This document shows positions 6,833 through 45,499 of a stretch of 64,000 bases of DNA, one piece after another. Position 1 is the stretch's first letter, and each line of letters opens with the position of its first letter. The DNA is from Podarcis cretensis. Lineage: Eukaryota. The stretch covers positions 73,718,001 through 73,782,000 of the forward strand of contig OX638153.1 of NCBI GenBank assembly GCA_951804945.1, given 5' to 3'. The translations under genes and the position numbers were made by a program. A model generated the notes under the pieces. That model was not told where the DNA came from, ran no database searches, and saw only the letters and a list, made by a program, of their open reading frames with translations.

Positions 6833-7309
6833 TCAGCCATCGTCAGATTCCAGTTCTTGAGACATTTCTTCAGATGAGCTATTCCTGTGGATCCGTCCAT
6901 CACTCTTCATGCTATGGAAAGTCTTCTTAAAGGCCTCCATCATGGCATGAGCCAACTTCTTGGCCTCTAACTTGCTCTCGCACTCTACAGCATGGCAGTC
7001 CATTTGGTAGGACAAATCATCGTTGATCTCCCGATAAACCCAAGCAAAAATGTTTGGGCTGACATTGTGGTCGGCAGTGCAGTAAGCAATACGTGCAACT
7101 TGAAAGGTATCCATGTGGACAGTGGCCTCTCCTTTGAGGTCCAGATGATGAAGCCAAACTTGGAAGGGGCGGATTTCCAGAAGGGCATTAGCTGAGAAGA
7201 TGTCCTCTCTGGCAAGCGTGTGCTTCTTCCACAACTCAATGACTGGTTTCTCCGTGCAACCTGACAAAAACTGCATCCCTGTTGTGGAAACTTTACCCAA
7301 ATATGTAAC
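6833..7309 (-). CDS. PID1: Terminal coding exon of phosphotyrosine interaction domain containing 1 (PTB/PID domain; NYGGF4/PCLI1), 158 aa + stop
   Basis: The translation VTYLGKVSTTGMQFLSGCTEKPVIELWKKHTLARED...FAWVYREINDDLSYQMDCHAVECESKLEAKKLAHAMMEAF...ELESDDG* matches the vertebrate PID1 C-terminal portion as I recall it. A phase-0 acceptor TCTTTTCTTAG|GTT has its AG at 7311-7310. The ORF-track start at 7300 is an internal TTG (Leu), not a true start. Confidence 0.96.
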   Translation of the reverse strand, partial: VTYLGKVSTTGMQFLSGCTEKPVIELWKKHTLAREDIFSANALLEIRPFQVWLHHLDLKGEATVHMDTFQVARIAYCTADHNVSPNIFAWVYREINDDLSYQMDCHAVECESKLEAKKLAHAMMEAFKKTFHSMKSDGRIHRNSSSEEMSQELESDDG

Positions 7310-8124
7310 CTAAGAAAAGAGATAGAAAGGAAATAAAGTTTGTCAACAGAAGTCTTTGGAATTTCAATTTCAACATGTTGTGATCTTTACACAGAACACC
7401 AATAGCATCACTTGAAAATTGTAAACCTATCTCAGCTCAAGCAATTTTTAGCTTGGGATTTTCAAAGTCTAGTTGACGTTGAATTAGAACTACTGAATTC
7501 ACAGTACATCCAAATATTGCATCACCTGACAATTCTATTAAAAAGCTGAATATTCAGCTACTGAGTACATCCATATTAGTTTCGTAATGATCAAAATGTG
7601 CCTATTTTGTCTTCCAATTAGACTTAAGTATGTATCATACAAGAATACAAAGATCTGAAGCAGCATTTTCAAATCTGAACTTACGTCTGCCTATCTTCCA
7701 ATGATTGCTTCTAAATGTAGAAGTACAACAGAAGATAAGCACTCTGTTCCTACTAGCTCTCAAATTTTACTTCTGTAATAGTGCTAAAATAATACATTCC
7801 AAGTGAACTGGTGTAACACAGTGAGTTAATTATACAATGTTGTGCATGTTTAATCCGAAGCAAGGCTCAATGAGTTCAGGAGGGCTTGCACTTATTTGGG
7901 AAGTGTTTTAGGACTGCAGCCTAAGACATGCTTAGTCAGGCATTATGCTTGAACAGGGAATCCTAATCAAAGTATGGGGCACTGAGTGGGAAGGTTTGAA
8001 GATAGTCAAACACACATAGAGACCCCCTTCAAAGCTTCTCACTCAACGTGGGAAGCTCAGAGCAAGCAGGAATGGCATACACAGCTCTATGGTTCCTATT
8101 CATGCTGGTATACGGTGTTCAGAG

Positions 8125-8342
8125 GTAATGCCTATACAAGCTACAAAGAGCTGCAAATCTGAACGCTTGTGGTTCGGTTCTTGTCTCTACCACCAGGTAG
8201 AAACCCATTAGGCAGGTCTCTGGCAAACTGCTCTCTTTCAGTCTCAACAATATGGGGATAATACTCATCCACTTCACAGAGTTGTTATAAAAACCACAGA
8301 ATGGTGTTAAAAGTGCTCTACAGATGCTAATAATTATTATTA
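8125..8342 (+). mobile_element. Old MIR/Ther1-like CORE SINE
   Basis: Degenerate core ATGGGGATAATA...CTTCACAGAGTTGTT and a (TAT)n-like tail. Confidence 0.45.
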
Positions 8343-8429
8343 TGTACATTGTGTTGTCTTTTTCAACATCTCAAATTAAAATATGATCTGTAAAAATAAC
8401 CAGATGGGCAGGGTAGAAATAAATTATTC

Positions 8430-8487
8430 CTACAACTACTACTGCTACTGCTACTACTACTACTACTACCACTACCACTACTACTAC
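8430..8487. repeat. (TAC)n imperfect microsatellite
   Basis: Run of TAC/TGC/CAC triplets. Confidence 0.9.
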
Positions 8488-8861
8488 AGTCCAGTTCACA
8501 ACTCTAAAATATATAGTTTGGAACTAGTTAGTTACAAAGTCGACCTAAGCAGTTGCTTTAGGGTGCCAGAATCTTAGGGGAAACAGTGAAGTAGCAGCAG
8601 ATGCTGCATAGGACAGAGTTCACTGGGAGTTTTGAAAGCAAAGTGGAAAGGAAATAGAGCCATAGCCAGTGCTGGAGGAGCGAGGGTCAAAAAGGGTGAA
8701 AGAGAATGGTATAGATAGAACAGGAGCTGGGCACAGAGATACATGCATGGCCAAGAGTTCTGCTTCATCTCTGGAAGAGGTTTGTGCTGGTGGGAAGTGG
8801 TTGGCATCATTTACCTATCCAGTCTTGGCCAAATTTTGAAATCGTATTCTTTAACAATGAG

Positions 8862-38610: not shown

Positions 38611-39189
38611 CAACAACCCCCTAATAACAGGAAAGTATATTCTTTTTATCATATTTTAGACTAGAAAGCATCAAAACAGGAACAAACACAAATGCAGCAC
38701 TGTGCAAAAGCTTATCTAAACTATAAAAAAACAACCCTCGGTATTTTGGATAAAAGAACTAAAAGAAAGATTAACTGAATAATGCCAGACTCTGTCATAA
38801 AAATATGGAGCATGCTGAGAAGCTGTGTAATAAAGATTTTAATACCCACAGAGCAGAGTTCCAGCAGTGTAAGAGTTCAGCAGGTCTTGGATAATAACAT
38901 TCTACTGTTTTGTTCTTTGGGGGGGAAATCATAACAAGAAAAGAAACATGTGTGAAAAATGATCTATGGGACACTACTAATGCAAACTACTGAGTAGCTA
39001 GCCATTGGTTAGTGTTAACATTTTCAACTATGTTTTCAGTGACAAAGTTCCCCACTGCCCTCTGTTAGGCAGTGTGCCGGTCATGAAAAGCTAGTACAAT
39101 AATTATACTAGAAGTCTCCATTCATTGCTTCCCATCATTAATCACCTTGTTACTTGCAAAACCTTTTGCCATATTTTGATCATTCACAT

Positions 39190-39270
39190 AAACACTGAGG
39201 TTTTTAAAATCTATTTTCTTTTCCTTCTCTGTTTTTTTACACATAAACCACATGCATGGGAGGTTCAAAA
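39190..39270 (+). repeat. 81-bp direct repeat, left copy (flank of YR retroelement)
   Basis: Identical to 43450-43530 except for one base (39232 T vs 43492 G). Confidence 0.95.
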
Positions 39271-40605
39271 AGCCTTTCCTCCTCCCAGGAGGGGAGGGGT
39301 TGTGATCGGGAGATGATTCCCGCATCATGCAGGGAGCGCTCCGCCCCCTGCTTCAACTCCAGGGCTGGCGCCACGCCCCTCCCCAGTTGGGCACTCAATA
39401 GGGAAGCTCGACGGGGGAGTGGCTTGCTGCTCAAACGCAGCCGCGCCAGCAATCCCCACCATTGCACACACATTTTCTTCGAGTCAGGAGTCATCGCAGG
39501 GAAGAGCTCAGCCACAAGGTTTGGAGTCGGGGGTGTTTGTGTGTGTGGAGGCTGTCTGGTTCCTGGCTTGCCTTTTTAAATTTAGGAGGCTTGCGTGCAC
39601 TCATTGCTTTACTGCTTTTAAAAACCGAGGCACCCAAGTTTGCCTTGCTGTCTTGCTGTGTCCTCTTTTCTGTGTAAAAACCTACATTTAACCTTTTATT
39701 TTCCCCCACTCCTGGTGCTGGATTTGTTTGAGCGGTTTAAGTGTGAATTACCTTTCTTAAGCTGCAGCTTGTTCCTTTGCCCAGCACATGGTCTCTCCAC
39801 CCCCAGCGAGGTCTGAGTGTGAGTGCCGTCTTTCTATCTCCCTTGTCTCCTCACTTTCCTTCCCCGACCTCTGCCTTGGTGGCTGTGCGTTTTATTTTAA
39901 TTTTGGCCAGGGTGCCTGTATGTTTTTCCCCTCTATTGCCCTTGCCCGTCTGATTGCCTGGCTGGTCTGGGTGACTGAATGGGTTTGCCTTTCATTTTAA
40001 TTTGTTGGCCAGGGTGCTTGTACGTTTCTCCCCTCCATTGCCCTTGCCTGTTCCTCTCTAATTTTAAGTCGTGTGTGTGTGTGCTGGCAGCGTGTGTTTG
40101 TGCCTGCCGTTTGTTGATTTATTACTCTTTTAGCGTGGGTTTGATTTACCCTGCCATCCCTTCCATTGGTACCACTTAAATCGGGAGCCTGTGAAATTTT
40201 AAATGATGCCGGGGCTTAGAATAGACTGTGTGCTTAAACCTCACCCCTCTTTATCTAAGCCACACACACCCTCTTCGCTTGGCATTTGGGGGAAGAAATA
40301 AGGCAGGGCTTGGGGCGGACAATTCAGGGTTTCTGATCAGGGAACCATTCCTCAGCATTGCACATTTATACATTTAGAACCTTTGAAGGTGTACCTTTGC
40401 CTGGTTCTTGTCATTGGCTTCACTTGCCAGTACAGAGTCCTTAAAGAAAACCGCTTTTAAACAACAACAACAACAACAAGGTTGCGGCTTATAGAACCTT
40501 ACTGAAAAGTCCAGGCTAACCCACGGTTTATATTTCCACTTCATTTTGGCTCACTGTAAAGGACAGCTATTTTCCTTTTCTTCTAAACTTTTCCTTGCCC
40601 ATCCG

Positions 40606-41060
40606 CATTCTTCGATCGAATTCTTCAATCGGGCACTAAGACTTATCCGGAATTTTGGTCACAAGGCACTCTTGGCAAAATGTGACATAGAGTCAGCCTT
40701 CTGTCTATTGCCGGTTCATCCCAATGACTTTCATTTGCTGGGATTCAAATTTCAAGGGAAATATTACATTGTCAAGGCTATGCCGATGGGTTGTTCTGTA
40801 GCCGGCTCGGCCTTTGAGACATTTAGCACCTTTTGGGACTGGGCCTTGCGCTACAGAACCAACTCACCTGGGGTGACACTTTACCTTGGTGACTTTCTAC
40901 TCGTTGGGAAGCCCAATACCGGCGAATGTGCCTCCCCCTTCTGGAGGCCTTTTCAGCTTGGGAGTTCCCCTCACGGTAGATAAGACGGACCCTCAATGCA
41001 TCTTACTTACCTGGGTATAGAGCTTGACACAGCAGCTCAATCTGCCTGCCTGGCCAAAGG
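40606..41060 (+). pseudogene. Reverse transcriptase of the YR element, disabled
   Basis: Motifs ALLAKCDIESAF.LLPVHP, MPMGCS, YLGD (40882-40893, in place of YLDD), LGVPL and LTYLGIELDT lie in shifting frames. The N-terminal part is missing. Confidence 0.9.
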
Positions 41061-41106
41061 GGAAAATAGTTGCCCTTAACGAAACAATTCGTCAAACCCT
41101 TCCCAA

Positions 41107-41150
<44 letters not shown>
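41107..41150. repeat. (AAT)n microsatellite expanded inside the RT-RNase H linker
   Basis: About 14 AAT units between ...QTLPK and KKVALRQVQSLL. Confidence 0.9.
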
Positions 41151-41151
<1 letters not shown>

Positions 41152-41154
<3 letters not shown>

Positions 41155-41757
41155 GTCGCTCTTAGACAGGTCCAGTCCTTGCTAGATCATTTCAACTTCG
41201 CATGTAGAGTAGTTTCACCAGGCCGCCCATTTTGCTCCCGCTTAGCCAGGCTGTCAGCGGGCCTCAAGCATCCGCACCATAGAGTAAGACTTCCCAAGTC
41301 AGTCAAGGCGGATTTTGAGATGTGGATCAGATTTCTGGAACACTACAACGGAGTCTCCCTATGGCAGGAAATCCTTAATTTGGCCTCTGATTTCCAGGTC
41401 CACTCCAATGCGGCAGGGTCCCTGGGCTTTGGTCTGTTCTTTAAGGGACGTTGGTGCGCGCAACAATGGCCAGCAGAGTGGCAAGGGGAGGCCATCATGC
41501 GGGATCTCACTTTTCTGGAGTTTTTTTTTTTTCTCATATTTGTGGTGGTTCACATATGGACCGAGGAGTTCCGGAATCGCCGGGTGTGCTTCAGAACTGA
41601 TAACCAGGCTGTGGTTAACATACTGGCTAGCAGTTATTGCATTCTGAGAGGGGTCTCGCCTACTTCGATCATTTGTGCTCCGATGCCTTGCTTCCGGTCA
41701 TTAGCACCTTGGGCTCAGCTGCTGCCAGAATCCTTTCCGAACCTATGGAACCTTGGA
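41152..41757 (+). pseudogene. Tether + RNase H of the YR element, disabled
   Basis: QSLL.HFNFACRVV.PGRPF; HSNAAGSLGFG (first catalytic Asp changed to Asn, 41407-41409); LTFLE; FRTDNQAVV. The segment with the last Asp (N.IADALSR) appears deleted, and there is a T12 run at 41521-41532. Confidence 0.88.
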
Positions 41758-42405
41758 GACGCGAAGTGATCAAGGGAGTATTAGTGTCTGTTGCACCCTC
41801 TACCCTCAGGTCTTATAAGAAAGTATGGTGCAACTTCACAGGTTTCAGGTCCAAAGTATCGTCCCTTTCCCCTATCGTATGAAACTTAGGTCAATTTGCT
41901 GGTCCAAGTTTGAGGCCCGGCTGTTCTCTGCAAAATACGTTATAGCCTTCTTTGGTGCCTTGCGGGTTGGCGAGGTGGTAGCAGAAGCTACCTCAAGTGG
42001 AACAGCGCGCAGCCTCCTCCTGGAGGACGTGCAGGTCTCCAGTTCAGGCGTGGTGGTGTGAGTGCATCAGTCTAAGATGGACCAGGGCGGTAAGGGCACC
42101 GTAGTACAACTCACGGCCTCCGGTCAGAAGGGCCCATGCCCAGTAAAGGACACCAGGCGATACCTTTACCTCAGACCTCCCGGCCTTGGCCCGCTCTTCG
42201 TTCATGAGGATGGATCCCGACTGATGAGGCACCAATTCACCAGGGTACTTTGCAAAGCGATAGATGCCTGCGCTTTCCCTTCCAAAGACTATGCGGCACA
42301 TTCATTTAGGATTGGTGTGGCCACAACGGCCTCATGGGCCTTCCGGCAGACAGGATCAAGGAGATGGGCCGCTGGAAATCTAATGCCTACAAAAGTATTC
42401 TGAGA
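41745..42405 (+). pseudogene. Tyrosine recombinase of the YR element, disabled
   Basis: MEPWR..SVAPSTLRSY, then an internal deletion, AFFGALRVGE (Arg I), in-frame TGA 42059-42061, SKMDQ (Lys), CPV, HSFRIG (HxxR, 42299-42310), a frameshift, and MGRWKSNAY (Trp and catalytic Tyr, 42388-42390). Confidence 0.92.
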
Positions 42406-42413
42406 ACGCTCCG

Positions 42414-42443
42414 CTTACCTGTCTTTTCTTTCTTTATTCTTAG
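42414..42443 (+). promoter_or_regulatory. Predicted branch point, polypyrimidine tract and 3' splice acceptor for the SGNH ORF
   Basis: CTTAC (A at 42417), CTGTCTTTTCTTTCTTTATTCT, then TAG| with AG at 42442-42443. The SGNH frame has no ATG upstream of its catalytic Ser. Confidence 0.7.
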
Positions 42444-43018
42444 CTGTCTTCGGTAGTCCAGTGTGGATTTGCGGCCACAGTATCGTGCATTGGGCCCGCC
42501 TCCAGTCAGCAAGTTCCGGCTTCATGCCTAATCTGGGGCTACCATCGTGGGTGCGAGTTTCCTGGTTGTCGAGAAGGGGCATGCACTGGCAAGAACTCAT
42601 GCCACTGCTGAAGGCAAAAGCTGCGCTGTTGGGCCCCCCTAACATTCTAATCATTCAGCTGGGTGAGAGCGACCTGGCTAGCAGGAAGAGTGTGGACTTG
42701 CTGTGGAACATGAGAAAGGTCTTGGATGAGTTGGCTGCCTTATTTCCCAGAACAGCCCTGTTCTGGTCCTCTCTCTTGAAGAGAAAGGTTTGGCGCGGTG
42801 TGCATAACATTATGGCCTTTGAGAAATTCAGGAAACTCTTGAATCGCGCGGTAGCGCGCAAAGTGCGTTTTATGAATGGCCTAGTTATATCTCATGATGA
42901 TATCCAGATTGGCGACCAGACCCTATTCCGGGATGACGGTGTTCATCTTTCAGATTGCGGAAACAACATATGGCTGGCTAACATATCCAATAGTCTTAGG
43001 GATTGGTTGCAGCTGTGA
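42444..43018 (+). CDS. SGNH/GDSL hydrolase (esterase/lipase-like) ORF of the YR element, uninterrupted
   Basis: Block I WICGHSIV (Ser 42479-42481), block II RRGMHW, block III IIQLGESDL (usually GxND) and block V FRDDGVHLS (42935-42946). No stop or frameshift over about 190 codons. Confidence 0.85.
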
Positions 43019-43449
43019 GGGTATTGGCGGCAAGCCTTTTGGCTCAGGTGGCGGTTAGGCATTGGAATGTGTTGTTGGTGTTTTGGGTGGCAAGGTGTGG
43101 CCATCGCCTTCCCCGACAATTTTGGGTATTCCGCTAAAGGAATCCAGTGGTCGTGGATCCTGTCCGATGCCCGTGTGGCGGGGGGCCATGGCACGACCCT
43201 CGGTGACATCAGGAAGAGAGCCTATAGTTGGATTAGCATCAACAGGCTTCCCCTACTGGTGGTTAACCCCTCCTCAAACTCACCCCTCTACAAGTGGGTG
43301 GAGTCTAATGTTCCGTGGTCCAATGCCTAAGCCAATACCTTTTCACATGCTGTAATCAATAAAGTTGTGGCCTTTACCTTACCCATTAACCTTACATTCT
43401 GTGTCCATGTGTCTTTATTCCCCAAGCGGGGATCGGGTCCTCGAATCAC

Positions 43450-43530
43450 AAACACTGAGGTTTTTAAAATCTATTTTCTTTTCCTTCTCTGGTTTTTTAC
43501 ACATAAACCACATGCATGGGAGGTTCAAAA
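43450..43530 (+). repeat. 81-bp direct repeat, right copy
   Basis: 80/81 identical to 39190-39270, offset by 4260 bp. Confidence 0.95.
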
Positions 43531-45499
43531 TATTGCTTTTCTTGGCAAGTGTTCCTGCTGTGCTGCTAGGATGTCATACATTTCTAATACTGTCTCCCCC
43601 CCCCCCCTCTTCCCCCTACCCAACTCATTTTACCTTCTCGCTGCCTTTGCACTTTATTGCATTCTGGTTATTGGGAGGTAGGTTAGAGGGGAGGAGACAA
43701 CTTTGCAGTGTGCTGCCTGTACTGGAGCACAATGCATAATGATAGGGAATATTCCTGTCCATTATATGACAATTTATGCTACCTGATGCTCTGGAACTCT
43801 TTGGAATATAAATACATCATAGACATGATCAGCAAACCCTGACATTCTTTCAGTTTGATCAAGCCCATGTGACAGCCTTGAAACAAGATGCTTTTATTTT
43901 AAGAAAAGCATCAGTGTGTGAATAATCAGAGTTAACATGGTATTTATATTTGGCTTGGCTCCCTTTTCAATGTTCTATCTTTTAACTCTCCAGCCTAAAA
44001 CGTTTCACAGTGCTTTAGCAACTGCAAGGAAAACAATCGATCAAAGATGCACACATGTTTTGTGTGCTATACAGTACACCTCTTCGTGTTTCAACTCACT
44101 GTCATATTGGCCACACAGAAATTTTAAATATGCCCACCAAATTCACTGTGCTCAATTCTCAGGAGAATTCTCAGCCAGCATCCAATTCAAATTCTCTTAC
44201 AAAATACTGCAGCTAAGGGCCAAATTAAGATGAGATGCTATTTGTGAAATTAGCAAATGGAAATTAGCAAATCATCAGGACTGTTGAATTGGCTCTACCA
44301 ATGTGTTACCAAGCCAGGTTCAAAGTTCTTTACTAATTCACAACATTCATGAGCAAGCCAGGCATTTCAACCAGGCTCCTTTTCACTGCCACTTACAATG
44401 AGGAGGCCCAATCCAGAGGCCACTGGCAGCATGAAATCTGCCCAGTGCCACCCCAGTCATTTCCATCTTAATGTAGCACCCACTTATGCTCAGTACTGTG
44501 CATACAGTGCAAAATTAAAATAACAAAAATTGGACATTCAGCAATGAGTCAGGTCTGATATCCCCCAAACCAGGCTGTCTGGTAGTTTTCCTAATTAATT
44601 TGGAACCCTAACCTGAAGAAAATTATTGCCCTTTTAGTTTTAAGGTTTGGTGTATATTATTTCAAGGCAGCTCTACAAGCTTTTCCTATGATGAGATATT
44701 CACTTGAACATTGCACAACAGTCATATGATACAGTGAATGTTTTATGAGACAGACATGACAGATTAAAATTAAAAACAGGTTCCCTGTCTGGACTCAGAA
44801 GAATAATGACAGGGGAAGAGACACACACAGAGAGACTGGGGATTAGGGATAAAAACAGGCTGAGACAAAGAGTTACAGCATCCTCTCCAGAATAAAAGCA
44901 GCTTTTACCAATAAAAATCTCCAACATTTGTGAATGCAGTTGAATGCACATTGATATTGGCATTTGTATGCCTTGTGCTATTTTTCTTTATTACTGCAGT
45001 ACGAATAGTCAATTTTCTTTATTAGTCTAAATGCAATTCTTTTACCTCATTGTATTTAATTATTTCCTAAAATTATGGCTATCGTACAAAAACAGACAAA
45101 TAGTTCAGCACACACGTAATCAACTGGTCCTCTTAATCTATAGCATATTTTTATTTAACAACAATTTTCTTTGAACTTCTGCTTATCAAGTAGTGTCAGA
45201 AAAATGGCCTGAAGTAATATTAAAAAGGATACTGGCTCCCAGCTAAGCACTTCAATGTAGACCATTTTCAAATCCCTCCATCACCTATATTCTGACCTCA
45301 TATTCTGTTTCTCAATTAGGACTGGAATAACCTGAAACGACAACATCCACAAATTGTTCCCATTTGCCTATTTGACTCTCCCCTCCTTTGGTAGTAATCA
45401 CTGTATACTGTGGCAGTCATTTACATAGTTTGACTATGAGCTGTATGAAGGAACATTTCTTTCATGCACTGGTGGAGGAAGAGGGGGGCGGGGAGAGCA

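Follow-up and report, generated by a model that had tools for sequence, protein, structure and literature searches.

A 64,000-nucleotide (nt) stretch of the Podarcis cretensis genome (assembly GCA_951804945.1, contig OX638153.1, positions 73,718,001 to 73,782,000, forward strand; hereafter the window, in whose coordinates all positions are given) contains, at 39271-43451, an element that belongs, as one copy, to a non-autonomous Ngaro family that is both large and mosaic. Its reverse transcriptase (RT), RNase H (RH) and tyrosine recombinase (YR) are dead, and the frame of its SGNH hydrolase is open. A preliminary description had proposed that this hydrolase might be under selection, either through a cis-preferring role or through co-option by the host. 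The window copy is probably an ordinary daughter of a non-autonomous subfamily, its copying and insertion having relied on proteins that an intact relative supplied. Its SGNH frame, which is still open, is most likely an orphaned exon that is neither under selection nor translated.

The sequence of events would be as follows. The subfamily has shared knockouts of RT, RH and YR; its RNA would have been reverse-transcribed in trans, and the A-internal-B product joined at a target AA by a helper recombinase. SGNH would ordinarily be expressed as a spliced 3' exon, and in the window copy the likely upstream partner of that exon is missing. Amino-acid changes have accumulated in this SGNH at least as fast as in the dead genes. 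Its freedom from insertions and deletions (indels) would reflect chance, perhaps also a shorter separate history of the 3' segment in a mosaic family.

Shared lesions and probable mobilisation in trans

Lesions were mapped by frameshift-aware alignment to a natural relative, L132 (L numbers denote loci), in which the frames of pol, YR and SGNH are all unbroken. The window remnants are 79% identical to its pol and 71% to its YR. The preliminary classification as a Ngaro-type element is supported. The pol of L132 matches RVT_1 (E 8e-12), and its YR matches Phage_integrase under the cut-off (E 3e-5); the window's own RT and SGNH score under the curated Pfam cut-offs, which the SGNH of relative L128 passes. 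The gene order of RT/RNase H, then YR, then SGNH is present, and this order and the repeats together suggest the Ngaro-like class. The RT remnant (40624..41106) carries YLGD at 40882-40893 and is followed by an (AAT)14.7 tract at 41107-41150, which sister copies also have at varying lengths. In the linker and RNase H remnant (41151..41769), the codon for the catalytic Asp is AAT (Asn) at 41407-41409. Breaks in the pol frame fall at about 40936, 40956, 40985, 41053, 41102, 41629, 41652 and 41690, and 28 codons have been deleted at the last of these. The YR remnant (41679..42403) has lost 80 codons at about 41876 and 4 nt at about 42332, with a stop between the two at 42059-42061; its damaged end, with a stop at 42401-42403, is common to the three A1-subfamily sisters covering the site. 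No gag is recognisable, the best alignment scoring 59 and being scattered, and pol residues 1-205 are absent by alignment with L132. This inventory of damage agrees with the preliminary description in every item that it listed.

Most of these lesions are shared with other copies. The RT D>G change is found in 10/10 close copies covering the site and the RNase H D>N change in 13/13, while L043 (~80% identity) retains both Asp residues. The breaks at 40985, 41102, 41629, 41652, 41690 and 41876 recur in 7-9 of the 9-11 copies compared, and that at 42332 in the four A1-subfamily copies covering it. The recombinase stop at 42059 is in none of 10 sisters, and is therefore private, as are the 13-nt loss at 40956 and a ~3.5-kb deletion, found in no other scored match, that removed the remnant of gag and the start of pol (junction 40601..40602, relative to sisters L081, L084 and L085). 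L031 differs from the window copy by ~3%. Because the RT, RNase H and YR lesions are common to copies at different loci, it is likely that the window copy moved with all three enzymes already dead and was mobilised in trans, as the preliminary description had held. Such action of proteins on deleted copies has been shown for DIRS-1 (PMC7192593).

Erosion of the SGNH frame

Neither stops nor indels interrupt the SGNH frame (42444-43018), which retains its Ser (42479-42481), Gly, Asp and His (DGVH, 42935-42946) and to this extent is intact as first described. Two defects had been overlooked. The block-III Asn is replaced by Ser (GESD, 42668-42670), and the 23 open codons that separate the stop at 42401-42403 from GHS include no in-frame ATG. 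The block-III residue is Asn in 58/65 scored copies and Ser in seven, all of subfamily A1. In the ZfL2-1 esterase the aligned Asn lines the oxyanion hole, and of the residues that mark an active SGNH hydrolase (Ser, Gly, Asn and His of blocks I, II, III and V, together with the acid) the window copy is missing the Asn. Some SGNH proteins do function without catalysis (PMC3905857).

Copies for comparison came from six DNA searches of the organism's own genome, each giving 75-280 first-look candidates of which the best 40 were scored, meaning the samples lean to the closest copies. Between open-frame relatives SGNH is under purifying selection, with omega at 0.13-0.21 in seven pairs; pairwise values with L043, L039 and L042 were set aside due to misaligned ends. 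The window copy differs in this regard. Among residues near-invariant in up to 12 relatives, 33/133 have changed in its SGNH, compared with 11/72 in RT, 16/128 in RH and 22/116 in YR (together 49/316; p 0.023), while L043 is even across domains, with 14-17% changed. On the stem since the split from L043, the ratio of non-synonymous to synonymous change (pN/pS) is 0.71 in SGNH, 0.37 in RT, 0.10 in RH and 0.23 in YR; the SGNH value does not differ from neutrality (p 0.33), and does differ from the other domains (p 0.03). Private SGNH variants have a pN/pS of 0.88, for which neutrality is not rejected (p 0.61), and shared SGNH variants have the same ratio of synonymous to non-synonymous change as RT/RH/YR (p 1.0).

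Private lesions number seven in 4977 nt of SGNH (1.41/kb), five in 8739 nt of pol (0.57/kb) and four in 5655 nt of YR (0.71/kb). Knockouts of SGNH are shared within three of five dead subfamilies (B 18/18, D 6/6, E 6/7), that of subfamily B being a single frameshift, with the same missing G visible in all 16 copies whose DNA was inspected. Eleven copies of subfamily A1 have SGNH sequence, and only the window copy and L031 have a whole unbroken core. Selection on the window hydrolase, whether in cis or by the host, is thus unsupported by the sequence comparisons. Of the two outcomes named beforehand as counting against it, disruption of SGNH at the rate of pol and YR with pN/pS near neutral was what was found; lesions private to this copy were not, most being shared.

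SGNH as a putative spliced exon

An acceptor-like site, comprising a pyrimidine tract and YAG, lies 26-29 nt before GHS in 54/57 scored copies, always in phase 1, and 36 nt before it in one further copy (55/57 in total); a branch-like motif is present in 25. In the window the site spans 42414..42443, with a branch-like CTTAC, a pyrimidine tract and TAG, and a donor-like GT stands at the end of the linker/RNase H remnant (41766-41767). One copy, L046 (G000:C9:60512000-60521900, minus strand; oriented position ~6152), contains an exact join of the pol-end GT to the AG before SGNH; the entire YR frame is missing from it, and by its look is a retrotransposed spliced RNA. This indicates, in one instance, use of the acceptor before SGNH in splicing; L046 is the sole spliced copy known among those examined. 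A second candidate, L033, was rejected as a spliced copy, its join of A to the acceptor region running through 5 nt of microhomology.

The probable partner is the N-terminal half of open reading frame 1 (ORF1). There, a phase-1 GT after an acidic motif is found in L137, L043, L046 and L130 (4/9 copies aligned), and is missing in the other five, all of dead group D, as well as in A-group sisters. RefSeq models from Zootoca and Podarcis, which are predictions, join a similar low-complexity N-part to SGNH, and others join YR to SGNH. From the conserved sites, the one spliced copy and these gene models, we infer that SGNH is likely a 3' exon, normally joined by phase-1 splicing to an upstream partner that is most probably the ORF1 N-terminal half. 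The window copy lacks that entire half, donor included; cryptic donors may be present. Spliced, esterase-bearing ORF3s are known from rotifer long terminal repeat (LTR) elements (PMC5408684). Two of the models, P0003 (Zootoca vivipara) and P0004 (Podarcis muralis), combine a Lys-rich, then acidic, low-complexity N-part with a Ngaro-type SGNH that has all catalytic residues, and may be either spliced element transcripts or domesticated genes.

Two other routes of expression are less likely. A fusion of YR to SGNH through a 55-69 nt intron, as modelled in RefSeq P0001 and P0002, has its donor GT in only 5/24 copies shown, most others having GC. The pol-end donor of L046 is unlikely to be the route to the protein, as an upstream ATG in the SGNH-compatible frame exists in only 2/10 copies. 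Four RNA runs compared with 39000-44000 had no listed joint at 42444, most reads being less than 95% alike, from other copies or another species, and uninformative here; no RNA record was listed for 42350-43451.

Family structure

An exact 23-base pattern of the right end identified 79 loci, all of which were inspected. The left end is intact in 60 and truncated in 19; 52 are short elements without SGNH, 13 have some SGNH and two have the whole core. The short elements (e.g. L057) are the commonest form of the family, and are mostly of a 794-bp A-spacer-B type with no coding sequence. Dead RT/RH of the same type is attached to several different 3' ends, making the family a mosaic, and in the tree subfamily A2 takes its SGNH from more than one clade; this tree contains 59 rows; 14 with large indels were dropped, and others, such as L043, were left out by a length filter. 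The nearest named proteins to the family are those of lacertid lizards.

Split direct repeats, in the order repeat A1-ORFs-repeat B1-repeat A2-repeat B2, are not found in the window copy, and no repeat A2 follows any of the 79 exact right ends. The order A1-ORFs-B1-A2-spacer-B2 is present in relatives L137, L093, L132, L122 and several subfamily B copies. In L122 (oriented 7435-8585), repeats B1 and B2 come from different subfamilies, being 82% identical to one another, with B2 97% identical to the window's B, and so record a repeat swap. L088-L089, L093-L100 and L113-L120 make up a dead subfamily that is young and in which 176 nt of pol are duplicated; the back-joint of this duplication (41412 to 41237) also occurs in RNA from organism B (3 and 13 reads), and copies bearing it seem to be transcribed in that organism. 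In L103-L106, L109 and L135, a 93-bp tandem repeat has expanded within the dead SGNH of subfamily D.

Termini, flanking duplications and integration

The element begins with AGCC at 39271 and ends with CACAA at 43451. Its left terminus is the A repeat (39271..39486), which is preceded by AA and has an inner hairpin; a 5' non-coding region (39487..40601), 89-95% shared with long non-autonomous copies of other subfamilies, follows. Its right terminus is the B repeat (43049..43451), with AATAAA at 43358-43363 and no poly(A) tail. Across the family, AA precedes 53/60 intact left ends, against a background of 0.089. In the window copy both junctions fall on AA, and an 81-bp duplication, its two halves differing by one mismatch, lies on either side; the left copy (39190-39270) has AA at both its ends, and the right copy (43450-43530) overlaps the element's terminal AA. 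The duplication itself was confirmed; a single mismatch in 81 bp (95% interval 0.03-6.7%) is a weak clock, and it is compatible with the ~3% divergence from L031. Duplications of at least 30 bp occur at only 4/79 loci, so that of the window is atypical, with L044, L132 and L136 adding cases from outside that sample; most copies have no duplication past the AA. The recorded lengths are ~220 bp in L136, 94 in L040, 81 in the window, 38 in L044, 35 in L038, 30 in L065/L166 and 25 in L132. All seven long duplications begin at the terminal AA of the right end, and five of the seven copies are 5'-truncated. Duplications of 10-11 bp at 3/79 loci were taken as chance.

Fourteen natural B1/A2 junctions (in L088, L093, L095, L096, L117, L119, L120, L122, L126, L131, L132, L133, L135 and L137) are predicted to form long hairpins (z -2.3 to -4.6) in which a 2x2 internal loop adjoins the crossover point; they are mostly close kin, and hence not independent. 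A stretch of L136, tried as a fifteenth, proved to be no junction and to have no fold. An arm of the window copy's A repeat, TTGTGA at 39300-39305, appears complementary to right-end sequence, a pairing judged by inspection and from the analogous natural junctions that were folded. Two compensatory pairs, again seen by inspection, distinguish the two ends of the window family. An Rfam scan of the element gave five matches, all far under gathering scores. Recombinases acting on folded single strands with one exchange are known from integron attC and the attP of the CTX phage. Joining from a folded junction, right end first and with repair of the left end, could account for the conserved junction hairpin and its loop crossover, for the exactness of the right ends, for the copies with 5' truncations, and for duplications of 25-220 bp, the 81 bp of the window copy among them. 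For DIRS-1, the cDNA is single-stranded (PMC7192593). The two side findings can be tentatively combined, in a reading that we hold to be possible rather than probable: ORF1 and SGNH would be fused by splicing, in the manner of the subgenomic message of env, and integration would use a B/A junction that is single-stranded and folded, the recombinase first joining the right end at a target AA and host repair then completing the left end.

Alternative explanations

A number of observations weigh against the view of the window SGNH as an orphaned, drifting exon. No lesion is common across the SGNH core of subfamily A1, one near-C-terminal stop being in 2/11 copies, and subfamily A2 is likewise without a shared SGNH lesion (3/7 open). 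Under uniform placement, a lesion-free last 572 nt has p 0.04 for all 12 window lesions and 0.09-0.15 for the 7-9 shared ones; taken as the longest gap anywhere, it has p 0.35. The stem count depends on 105 columns, a single sister copy and outgroups whose synonymous sites are nearly saturated, and the same-domain contrast of SGNH with the L043 branch has p 0.06. The RT/RH/YR groups contain recombinant copies, while the SGNH group is of subfamily A1 only. L033 and L037 retain the Asn, and its change thus postdates part of the spread of A1. The short elements may be by-products of longer masters, making their missing SGNH weak evidence. With regard to splicing, the join in L046 does not by itself bring SGNH into frame with pol or YR, and the ORF1-SGNH junction is in none of the RNA or genomic copies seen.

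The lack of subfamily-wide SGNH lesions in A1 and A2, the lesion-free stretch and the purifying selection between open-frame relatives would all suit the idea at the centre of the preliminary description, namely that the hydrolase acts preferentially in cis, and that non-autonomous masters with an open SGNH were therefore copied more. This is very unlikely, being largely refuted by subfamily B, in which at least 18 near-identical copies carry one shared SGNH frameshift. These copies are young: end branches are 0-0.011 in the 12 copies on the tree, and several retain a natural B1/A2 junction. The knockouts within D and E, the neutral-like erosion of SGNH in A1, and the loss of both start codon and ORF1 donor further oppose it. 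Co-option of the window SGNH by the host, as an exon or a gene, could draw on the open frame, the acceptor-like site, the downstream AATAAA, and the RefSeq models of other lizards that end in Ngaro-type SGNH exons. It is nevertheless extremely improbable, as the window copy is ~3% from its sisters, shares the same eroded SGNH with L031 and has lost the block-III Asn, and the sole host coding exon identified in the window is on the opposite strand. This exon (6836-7309, minus strand) encodes a PID/PTB domain (PF14719, E 7e-18), and we take it to be the last exon of PID1, in an intron of which the element may sit antisense.

A later acquisition of the SGNH and B segment, by template switching from a healthier relative, is a more serious possibility, though still a doubtful one, and it could add to the preferred explanation rather than replace it. 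Compatibility of the B repeat alone would then have been selected, with SGNH hitchhiking. The mosaic family, with one type of dead RT/RH on different 3' ends and SGNH of more than one clade in A2, is consistent with such switching, as is the lower stem pS of SGNH (0.09, versus 0.19-0.26 in RT/RH/YR). Yet the SGNH of A1 sits on its own long stem (0.075), with a stem pN as high as that of RT (0.062 versus 0.069), and was accordingly no fresh donation; similarity to L043 is about equal (79-82%) over RT/RH and YR/SGNH. Insertion of the window copy by the machinery of a long interspersed nuclear element (LINE), with target-primed reverse transcription as the source of the 81-bp duplication, is unlikely. 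The seven long duplications, five of them beside 5'-truncated copies with exact 3' ends, count in its favour, but the window copy, like others of the 79, has no poly(A) or repeat tail, and its end, 88 nt beyond AATAAA, is the CACAA at which copies free of duplications also stop. Both of its junctions are on target AA, and the general lack of duplications past the AA also opposes this route. The reading of the window copy as a trans-mobilised daughter with an unselected SGNH accordingly stands as the best explanation.

Relation to known elements

The family resembles DIRS-53_XT of Xenopus, a vertebrate Ngaro-like element with an SGNH ORF, in its order of gag, RT/RH, YR and SGNH, in the split direct repeats of its complete members (L137, L093 and B copies), and in having a hydrolase of unproven function (PMC9210276); an SGNH ORF after YR is known for amphibian Ngaro elements (PMC9210276). 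Unlike DIRS-53_XT, the window copy is limited to A and B, is without gag and carries dead enzymes, and the part of that account considered here describes no SGNH splicing, non-autonomous subfamilies or flanking duplications (PMC9210276). In the papers that literature searches listed, neither titles nor abstract openings mention a spliced Ngaro hydrolase, a junction hairpin or long duplications, subjects that Goodwin and Poulter 2004 and Poulter and Butler 2015 may treat. Cafeteria has solo AB repeats and type 2b Ngaros that lack ORF1 (PMC8547959), and SIRE is the A2-B2 derivative of VIPER (PMC6681497); the lizard family resembles these in that its short A-B units are more numerous than its long copies (52/79) and in having derivatives without gag. 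The lizard family is distinguished from both by its 176-bp spacer between A and B, and by A-internal-B copies with many different internal deletions.

A further comparison is with the esterase of ZfL2-1 ORF1p (PDB 4C1B; PMC3905857), which shares the SGNH fold, aligns over blocks III and V, and is the top or second PDB match to the SGNH, albeit a weak one (E 0.23 and 0.079). If the ORF1-SGNH splice is real, its product would resemble this ORF1p-esterase, and in non-LTR ORF1p systems lost domains can be supplied in trans (PMC3905857). Unlike LINEs, where the esterase lies inside ORF1, the hydrolase here would be a separate 3' exon, and the window copy is without the oxyanion-hole Asn. DIRS-1 of Dictyostelium is likewise a YR retroelement with trans-acting proteins that serve deleted copies, and a short core sequence at both insertion ends, but it has inverted repeats and an ICR rather than split direct repeats, and no SGNH (PMC7192593).

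Implications

The claim that selection has preserved the hydrolase of a dead element fails, and the window copy is ordinary; the interest of the family lies mainly in the side findings on splicing and integration. The specificity of DIRS recombinases has been stated to be untested (PMC7192593), and the predicted junction hairpin and one-sided long duplications lead to a model of both the recombinase substrate and the order of joining. The function of the Ngaro hydrolase is unproven, and its likely expression as a spliced exon would name the protein to be tested. In this lizard family the hydrolase is under constraint where frames are open, can be dispensed with in cis, and is probably expressed as a spliced exon.

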